A stretch of DNA of 64,000 bases from Escherichia phage ZX4221, in sequence record OR498728.1; one strand, 5' to 3'. The notes beneath the pieces were generated by a model. The model had not been told where the DNA came from and made no database searches. It was given only the letters and a program-made list of their open reading frames with translations. Below, piece by piece: positions 45,303 through 46,348 of this stretch. Within the stretch, counting starts at the first letter, position 1. Each line of letters starts with the position of its first letter. A program made the position numbers and the translations under genes.

Positions 45303-45743
45303 TTAGAAAGGTTTTCTACGTTGCTTGTTAATGTTAGCTTTCATAGCAGCTAAATGGTTTTGCTGTTCAATCAGTCGTGAACGTTCTTGATGACTAAGCG
45401 CCATAGTGTTCACATTCTCAATTGCTTGAGTGGCTTGCTTTAAAGCTCGACCAATCTTACCAGACATTTTGCGTTTTGCAATAGTTGCTTGATGCTTAGG
45501 TTCAACCACACGATAACCAACACCCATTGAAGCAACCAGGTAAATCTTCTCTTCTTTAAGAAGCTTTTCAATAAACTTCTCAAGTCGGTTTAGACGTGTA
45601 AGTGCATAAGCCTTCATTTCATCTTCGTACTTAACAATGTCACCTTGATAAGTTGGCTTCACAATACCTAAGAAGGTGTCCATCTCGGAATGTGATACAG
45701 TGTCGCCGTAACTAAACTTTGCTGCTAATGCTTTTGTATTCAT
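45303..45743 (-). CDS. hypothetical protein (146 aa), cassette gene 2
   Basis: ORF-track ORF; flanked by the composite repeat blocks. Confidence 0.5.
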   Translation of the reverse strand: MNTKALAAKFSYGDTVSHSEMDTFLGIVKPTYQGDIVKYEDEMKAYALTRLNRLEKFIEKLLKEEKIYLVASMGVGYRVVEPKHQATIAKRKMSGKIGRALKQATQAIENVNTMALSHQERSRLIEQQNHLAAMKANINKQRRKPF

Positions 45744-45745
45744 AA

Positions 45746-46348
45746 TTAAACGTTACCTTCTGAAATAACTTCTACAGAAAAACGACCAAAGCGTGGACGC
45801 CAATCACCTACACCACAAAGGTTACCAGCATTTTCCAGAACCATCAGAAGTTCCTCTTTGGTGATTTGCTCTTCATCAAACATCAAACCAAACTCTACAG
45901 ACCAGTCACGGAAGATTGGACGGTAGCTCATAACTCGTGCTGTACCAATCTTAACAGACTTAGCATAGATAAAGTCTGGATTCTTAGCAAGTTCTTGTGG
46001 GTTTGCTGGACAGTTCTTGATAGTCATTGGGAAGACTACATCTGTCAGCATAATGGCTCGGTCAATTACCTTACCAAGTTTGTTGAGTTTTGCACCAGAC
46101 TTGATACAAGCCTCAATCATCTCACCGTTCATAACAAAACCAAGTTGCTCATCGTAGTAACAAGAAGTTACCAGTTGGCTTTCTGCTAAGAGCGCATAGT
46201 CTTCGTCAGTCTTTTTACGTTTACTGGACAGAGACTTGTGATATTTTGTCAGAGGGTTTAATGGGTCTGACAACGTATCGTTATGGCTCAAGAAAGGACG
46301 AGTACCAGTGATTTTGATATTTAGCAGTTTCATAGCATTTAGCTCCAC
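45746..46348 (-). CDS. hypothetical protein (200 aa), cassette gene 1
   Basis: ORF-track ORF; 2 nt from downstream gene. Confidence 0.5.

Follow-up and report, generated by a model that had tools for sequence, protein, structure and literature searches.

A type II VIPR locus of the SUSP1 clade in a Felixounavirus, with guide RNAs most likely directed at an Escherichia coli satellite island

Introduction

VIPR (Viral Interference Programmable Repeat) was described in two 2026 bioRxiv preprints (10.64898/2026.04.26.720920 and 10.64898/2026.04.26.720927), and our literature search found no mention of it outside these two. It is a recently reported form of RNA-guided DNA recognition that uses a non-contiguous code and has been proposed to be older than CRISPR. 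Its effector, Vipr, is a minimal RAMP protein whose gene is followed by a vap accessory gene, while its guide RNAs (vrRNAs) are ~100 nt long and consist of 9–16 YNNGG repeats, in which GGY is conserved and NN is hypervariable, and an invariant, pseudoknotted 3' tail (10.64898/2026.04.26.720920, 10.64898/2026.04.26.720927). In Escherichia phage SUSP1, each repeat of the vrRNA takes up one protomer as Vipr polymerises along it, the NN dinucleotides read double-stranded DNA with every third target base skipped, and the R-loop triplex so formed represses transcription, with vap1 enhancing the silencing; expression of the SUSP1 vrRNAs, their co-purification with Vipr and repression of matching DNA have all been shown (10.64898/2026.04.26.720920, 10.64898/2026.04.26.720927). 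In the SUSP1 clade, 18 of the 20 assignable guides target a phage satellite (10.64898/2026.04.26.720920, 10.64898/2026.04.26.720927), which, according to the VIPR preprint, has its baseplate hub in common with SUSP1. The same source reports that natural targets keep codon register, the skipped base falling on the wobble position, and that other VIPR clades target prophage regulators and other VIPR systems. The main preprint began from Vipr proteins, and targets of the SUSP1 clade were sought there only in E. coli chromosomes and plasmids.

The preprints liken Vipr to the Cas7/RAMP backbones of Class 1 CRISPR-Cas systems (Cascade, Csm/Cmr): in both, a RAMP protomer with an RRM, a G-loop and a thumb polymerises on a guide RNA, and the thumbs break guide–target pairing periodically. 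The two differ in the guide, that of VIPR repeating every 5 nt, with only 2 bases in each 5 pairing and the target read 2-of-3, and in the outcome, which is silencing for VIPR and cleavage for Class 1 CRISPR-Cas. The VIPR of a Pseudomonas fulva prophage, which we compare by the preprint's description, resembles the locus reported here in its Vipr, vap1, GGY/NN vrRNA arrays and R-loop triplex, and is unlike it in having a temperate carrier and in targeting mainly prophage lysis-lysogeny regulators and other VIPR systems.

We are highly confident that positions 44895–46740 (minus strand) of a 64,000-nucleotide stretch of Escherichia phage ZX4221 DNA (record OR498728.1; the window) hold a complete type II VIPR locus of the SUSP1 clade in a Felixounavirus, made up of five vrRNAs of ~85–100 nt, vipr and vap1, with guides that we infer to be directed against an ~11-kb E. 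coli satellite island. The system itself is already known, and this is a typical type II member of the SUSP1 clade: its Vipr is 97.9% identical to that of SUSP1 and its Vap1 99.3% identical to the phiSUSP1 protein, the order ligase, vrRNA, vipr, vap1, vrRNAs, gp93 homolog is the same, and the GGY/NN units, pseudoknot tails and satellite targets are alike in kind. It differs from SUSP1 in its carrier (a Felixounavirus versus a Suspvirus), in the number of vrRNAs (five, two upstream and three downstream, versus four, one upstream and three downstream) and in the NN sequence of every guide. Unlike Class 1 CRISPR-Cas systems, the ORFs of the locus include no recognisable Cas6, large subunit or nuclease gene, and repeat and tandem-repeat scans of the locus and the window found no CRISPR repeat-spacer array, only 5-nt-period GGYNN tracts.

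Results

The locus and its surroundings

A 2.6-kb query around the locus matched 243 phage records at 80–99% identity, nearly all of them Felixounavirus or other Ounavirinae with Escherichia, Salmonella and Shigella hosts; the window phage is a Felixounavirus. In the annotated relatives dune and wV8, the minus strand carries, in the same order as in the window, DNA polymerase, small ORFs, DNA ligase, two hypothetical genes, a gp93 homolog, a regulator, DHFR and thymidylate synthase, with 'DR_4' or 'repeat_region' features annotated next to both hypothetical genes. The window ORFs flanking vipr and vap1 match ligase, DHFR, thymidylate synthase and small hypothetical proteins in the relatives' annotations; an earlier note, made from the sequence alone, had read the surroundings as a nucleotide metabolism module, and the thymidylate synthase, DHFR, ligase and DNA polymerase neighbours bear this out. 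The features of the locus and the sites related to it are collected in Table 1.

Table 1. Features of the VIPR locus in the window, and related sites in relatives and satellites.
Feature	Position	Strand	Description
Sigma-70-like promoter	46713..46740	-	TTGACA, 16 nt, TATACT; 11/12 consensus matches; upstream of vrRNA-1
40-nt hairpin leader	46643..46682	-	CATCACTTAAGAG...AAGTGATG; directly 5' of vrRNA-1
vrRNA-1 (guide A)	46535..46635	-	12 guide units: CA AT GC GG AA GG CA GT AT GC GA TC; constant GGTAT/GGGTA units; pseudoknot tail
vrRNA-2 (guide B)	46410..46498	-	11 guide units: GT AG TA GG TG AT GT GT GT AC GT; type-2 pseudoknot tail
vipr	45746..46333	-	195-aa RAMP-type protein; 191/195 identical to PDB 36pp_D
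Site in vipr matching orphan guides	45837..45868	-	codons 156-166; codon-aligned, skipped base at wobble
vap1	45303..45743	-	146-aa accessory protein, immediately downstream of vipr
Terminator-like hairpin	45276..45291	-	AGCCTCTTCGGAGGCT then T run; 11 nt past vap1 stop codon
vrRNA-3 (guide C)	45154..45238	-	9 guide units: AA GC CT AA AT AT TG GA GA; tail
vrRNA-4 (guide D)	45021..45111	-	10 guide units: AG CT AG AA CT CT AG CT AG GA; tail
vrRNA-5 (guide E)	44895..44983	-	10 guide units: GC AT GG AA AG TA GA CA GA TT; type-3 tail
Conserved spacer elements	46643-46682, 45114-45154; also 46499-46534, 44984-45020, 45239-45275	-	
Loci of relatives tied to the orphan guide for the vipr site	L003, L004, L023, L026, L033/L034		
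Satellite island	L006:5600-17400; equivalents L007-L010, L029-L032		E. coli
Satellite vrRNA sites listed for vrRNA-2	L010:5118, L017:4898, L006:6848		

The promoter, to judge by its sequence and position, probably drives vrRNA-1, vrRNA-2, vipr and vap1, and it is retained in relatives without vipr. The hairpin leader has a second copy at 45114–45154, ahead of vrRNA-4, and may act as a processing site, a terminator or a promoter element. Conserved elements of ~36–40 nt separate consecutive vrRNAs, one type being the hairpin CATCACTTAAGAGTCTTCTAAGAGGGTTTTTAAGTGATG and the other the palindrome-containing CCTTTTTAAAAGGTCTTTAAGAGGGTCTTTTAATAA, and a related motif lies upstream of vipr at 46385–46402; they too may be promoters, terminators or processing sites.

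Three further observations were made in the window. A basic, Cys-containing ORF of 62 aa (46737–46925, minus strand) lies between the ligase gene and the VIPR promoter; its DNA is found in VpaE1_ev78 and is absent from FO1a, where the promoter directly follows the ligase stop codon. The left end of the window (1–1070) is of low GC content and holds dense, short periodic repeats of 10–14 nt (TTGTTAG/CTGTTAAG-like), a 62-nt tandem duplication and a TA run, and may have a regulatory or origin-like role. Within a 461-aa ORF (6843–8228, minus strand), positions 6862–7388 form a 252-bp tandem repeat (2.1 copies, 76% matches).

Identity of Vipr and Vap1

The two ORFs at 45303–46348 had been given as proteins of 200 and 146 aa. 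Both lie on the minus strand and the 146-aa ORF (45303–45743) was exact, but the larger protein is 195 aa long and starts at 46333. The 200-aa version (45746–46348) requires a GTG start within the Shine-Dalgarno sequence (GTGGAG), while the ATG at 46333 stands 9 nt after GGAG; the 195-aa product corresponds to residues 1–195 of the 202-residue chain 36pp_D and to the 588-nt CDS annotated in relatives. Because ATG spacing, PDB chain and relatives' CDS agree, the 5' boundary of vipr was placed at 46333, not 46348.

A sequence search of the PDB returned a single match for the 195-aa protein, chain 36pp_D, 'SUSP1 Vipr protein' (E = 6e-128; 191/195 residues identical, 97.9%, over the full length). 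Of the 14 residues to which the structure preprint assigns RNA/DNA contacts, thirteen are conserved in place (H17, K33, R39, E71, M72, K82, G87, K88, R138, C173, D177, W178 and R179), and the preprint's 'T175' is V in the window protein, in surroundings identical to the SUSP1 chain. The RAMP fold of Vipr (RRM core, G-loop and thumb) was adopted from the solved structure 36pp. No Pfam domain was found in either Vipr or Vap1, in line with the earlier statement that the pair had no recognisable motif; PHROGs families do exist for both, annotated as of unknown function (phrog_4652, 4.6e-97; phrog_5926, 7e-76), and it was PDB entry 36pp and the preprints that identified the two proteins.

Vap1 is predicted to be a winged-helix-like DNA-binding protein, its predicted model consisting of a winged-helix-like N-terminal part followed by two long helices; a Foldseek search of the PDB with this model gave no significant match. 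A word-based homolog search with Vap1 recovered only near-identical proteins and an exhaustive HMMER search 234 distant relatives. Where present at the locus both proteins are nearly invariant, Vap1 being at least 99% identical in 108 of 117 records.

Two distant Vipr homologs (45–48% identity) were located on unrelated phage contigs, one from a JGI metagenome and one from a human-skin metagenome. In both cases a Vap1-family gene comes next (hmmsearch E = 3e-42 and 4e-12) and GGYNN arrays of 9–16 units lie on either side on the same strand, which by sequence comparison is an independent recurrence of the vipr/vap1/GGYNN architecture in unrelated phages.

Anatomy of the vrRNA genes

Only vipr and vap1 are encoded between the two repeat blocks (44895–45238 and 46410–46635). 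The repeats, which had been seen as flanking a cassette, are real and far beyond chance, but they do not delimit a cassette: they encode the guide RNAs of the very system to which the two proteins belong, and the proteins cannot be interpreted apart from them. They comprise five in-phase minus-strand arrays of 11–14 units with GG at a period of five, of which two precede vipr and three follow vap1; a scan of both strands of the window for GG at this period found no further array. Over the 56 GGYNN units of the five arrays, conservation is 91% for G1, 98% for G2 and 100% for Y3, with N4 and N5 variable, and the orthologous tracts of dune, wV8, VpaE1 and SUSP1 keep the GGY and the tails and differ from the window in NN.

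Tail folding was assessed on 12 distinct tails. The hairpin and pseudoknot left 90.2% of cells paired, and 9 of the 11 tail pairs have changed on both sides, that is, in a compensatory manner; none of 500 shuffles paired as highly as observed, and slid controls reached at most 39%. The type-3 tail of vrRNA-5 is the one kept in relatives without vipr. Rfam 15 contains no family that matches GGYNN tracts, and the 2010 Felix O1 genome paper lists longer direct repeats, with the GGYNN tracts absent from its text. Two early readings of the tracts, as TRAP-like RNA wrapped on a ring protein (from the ACCNN/GGTNN period) and as double-stranded DNA iterons, were dropped; the PDB match and the preprints explain the tracts and their periodicity.

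Accessory distribution

The vipr–vap1 pair is accessory, as had been proposed: both genes occur in 117 Felixounavirus records, compared with 243 records that match the locus together with its flanks. What would have spoken against this idea is homology to core replication proteins shared by every relative; none was found, and so the idea stands. In cassette-less genomes the match to the 2.6-kb query shrinks to ~0.7–1.1 kb, and what remains is the promoter with the leader hairpin, plus one or two vrRNAs carrying the type-3 tail; the endpoints of the deletion or insertion therefore lie inside the vrRNA array, and the presence and absence of vipr and vap1 is consistent with recombination between vrRNA units.

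Satellite island and predicted guide targets

A window ORF after the tape-measure gene (31079–31876) matches a chromosomal 'phage baseplate protein' of E. coli at 70–95% DNA identity, and 474 of 5,426 complete E. coli genomes carry this match and its satellite island. The islands are ~11–12 kb long, are integrated at several sites (yciI/tonB, dinB, wrbA and yecD) and encode serine recombinases, a Dam methylase, small ORFs, an ORF annotated as 'transposase', a tape measure and a hub; a period-5 scan showed that they also carry vrRNAs with related tails. By tblastn, neither vipr nor vap1 was detected in the satellite loci or in FO1a, and blastn of the downstream vrRNA block against the 5,426 E. 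coli genomes gave no match.

Guide targets were scanned for with the NN code at skips of 0–3 in 17 satellite-family loci (344 kb), including eight IMG/VR relatives. Guide A matches at 22/24 in the satellite tape-measure gene (L031:8357, L013:3504), at the predicted target site CAGATGGCTGGTAAGGGTCAGGTTATGGCTGA, and guide B at 19/22 at the 3' end and tail of the satellites' own vrRNA gene (L010:5118, L017:4898); for each, 0/100 shuffles scored as high. For guide C the match is 17/18 at L015:1389, which is intergenic and lies ~150 bp upstream of a 234-aa ORF, itself followed by a tape-measure homolog, in a distantly related element whose tape measure is 50% identical to that of the E. coli satellite; guide E matches at 18/20 in a satellite hypothetical gene (L031:5262), where the shuffle maximum was 17. 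The matches of guides A, B, C and E (86–94%) were obtained with skip-1 only and exceeded all unit shuffles and the other skip rules, and the A and E target sites are in register with the codons, the skipped base falling on the wobble position. The best match of guide D (16/20) is inside the shuffle range; its first 7 units match a satellite tape-measure site perfectly, and an 8-unit VpaE1 guide matches the same site at 16/16.

The site of guide B has two further properties. The vrRNA-2 guide matches its own tail at only 17/22, versus 19/22 for the last repeats and tail of the satellite vrRNA gene, and this weaker self-match would spare the phage's own gene, while a guide of NBSal004 matches the same satellite vrRNA site at 22/24.

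Elsewhere the guides found little: nothing comparable turned up in the ~150 kb of host flanks that these loci include, and neither the window itself nor the FO1a genome (best 16/24) contained a target for them. Guides E and D each have one exact 20-base skip-1 match in an IMG/VR contig (L027:3849–3877 and L028:8927–8955); neither contig resembles the phage or the satellites, the L027 site is an uninterrupted codon run with the skipped base at third position, and both matches are probably due to chance. In E. coli, the window phage most likely uses VIPR against a parasitic satellite element, which it would silence.

Orphan guides in vipr-less relatives

Felixounaviruses without vipr, Felix O1 among them, retain one or two promoter-proximal orphan vrRNAs at the locus. 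The Felix O1-type orphan vrRNA region occurs in ~45 phage records, including Felix O1, at 91–100% identity over its full 121 nt. FO1a has only one clear GGYNN array, a single orphan vrRNA with the NN units GA AT AC AA GA GA CT CT AT GT CT. By the skip-1 rule, orphan guides match a site within vipr itself (45837–45868; Table 1), at 21/22 for FO1a and phiWec174, 23/26 for Pr103Blw and 22/26 for VpaE1_ev78; other skip rules gave at most 17/22, and the maximum in 300 shuffles was 19/22. The FO1a-type guide matches the same site in the vipr genes of dune (21/22), wV8 (20/22) and VpaE1 (19/22). In VpaE1 (L005:2829), a Lys-to-Arg codon change (AAA to CGA) inside the target costs one unit and gives the 19/22; this change could reflect escape or chance.

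The orphan guides of other vipr-less phages score 18/20 to 24/28 against the E. coli satellite. NRG857CP1, NBSal004 and fKMPT1 (L019–L021, between ligase and the gp93 homolog) keep two orphan vrRNAs, and a guide of NRG857CP1 is the same as the window's vrRNA-1; these orphans could stem from recent vipr deletions or be guides working in trans.

Orphan guides in general may use Vipr supplied in trans, or may be relics. One possibility, which we put forward tentatively and to which we give somewhat less than even odds, is that of a 'Trojan guide': in co-infection, the Felix O1-type orphan guide would load on a rival's Vipr and silence the rival's vipr–vap1–vrRNA operon, an anti-VIPR guide piracy. 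Alternatively, the orphan guide may be left over from a self-targeting event that took place before vipr was lost. Since the satellites have vrRNAs and no vipr, they would likewise borrow the phage's protein, in parallel to guide piracy.

Discussion

The predicted targets bear on what the locus does. A role in host takeover, one of the functions that had been suggested, is unsupported, because the predicted targets belong to a phage satellite and not to the host. The suggestion of defence came closer, in that the locus plays a part in a conflict between mobile elements. Natural targets among host genes or competing lytic phages, with the system still a VIPR, are in our judgement very unlikely. 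This reading can draw on guide D, which has no convincing satellite target, on the small sample of DNA that the scan covered and on the preprint's account of other VIPR clades, whose targets are prophage regulators and other VIPR systems; set against it are the four guides of five that match the satellite family above every shuffle, the ~150 kb of flanking host DNA without a comparable match, and the fact that no guide matches the window or FO1a (16/24 at best).

Two further readings would deny that the repeats are guides at all. The genes might be cargo of a mobile cassette, with the repeats as recombination or insertion borders and a toxin–antitoxin, anti-defence or host-takeover role for the proteins, and the presence/absence polymorphism among relatives, the breakpoints within the repeat blocks and the lack of a Pfam domain in either protein would all fit. 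However, the locus has no transposase, integrase or homing endonuclease, and no recombinase or endonuclease of its own with terminal inverted repeats or a target-site duplication was found there; the repeats are all direct, on the coding strand, with a 5-nt GGYNN period and structured tails; one of the proteins is the structurally solved Vipr; the same three parts recur in unrelated phages; and deletion through recombination of vrRNA units accounts for the polymorphism without mobility machinery. We therefore hold the cassette reading to be extremely improbable. To the remaining view, that the GGTNN/ACCNN tracts are double-stranded DNA elements (iterons, protein-binding arrays or bent DNA) that regulate the replication genes, with the two proteins as DNA-binding partners, we assign a probability close to nil. 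The 5-bp periodicity was read in this way before the database matches, and relatives without the proteins still hold one or two tracts, but the GGY motif is strand-specific, the tails show RNA pseudoknot covariation, the hypervariable NN encodes skip-1 matches to foreign genes and Vipr–vrRNA structures have been solved.

For a VIPR system directed at the satellite, a mechanism can be proposed in which RNP formation, the skip rule, silencing and Vap1 enhancement are borrowed from the preprints' work on SUSP1. All five vrRNAs would be expressed; one Vipr protomer would bind each GGY of a vrRNA, and the protomers would build a helical filament that exposes the NN dinucleotides for pairing with double-stranded DNA, every third target base being skipped. 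The resulting R-loop triplex would block transcription, and Vap1 would enhance the silencing. With guides that appear to be directed at the satellite's tape-measure gene, a small hypothetical gene and the satellite's own vrRNA gene, the whole system would serve as the phage's anti-parasite weapon, and silencing of the satellite would benefit the phage.

Guide-only elements that rely on another's effector and are aimed at a rival element are familiar from virus-borne mini-CRISPR or orphan arrays and from RNA anti-CRISPRs. The orphan vrRNAs of vipr-less relatives resemble these by analogy; they are unlike them in belonging to a VIPR system and in that the Felix O1-type guide would be aimed, as its skip-1 match suggests, at the effector gene itself. 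Orphan anti-vipr guides were not found in the main VIPR preprint, and the residual novelty of the present analysis lies in these guides in relatives and in the guide aimed at the satellite's vrRNA gene.

Conclusions

The locus is a sequence-only, independent rediscovery of VIPR. For annotation, the gain is that two 'hypothetical proteins' and ~0.9 kb of 'repeats' in well over 100 Felixounavirus genomes can be annotated as a single functional unit whose targets are predictable. Because phages like Felix O1 serve in diagnostics, biocontrol and therapy, VIPR carriage, and which satellites the guides silence, is of practical relevance. The orphan guides, one of which is aimed at vipr, would, if functional, add a new layer of conflict among phages and between phages and their satellites.
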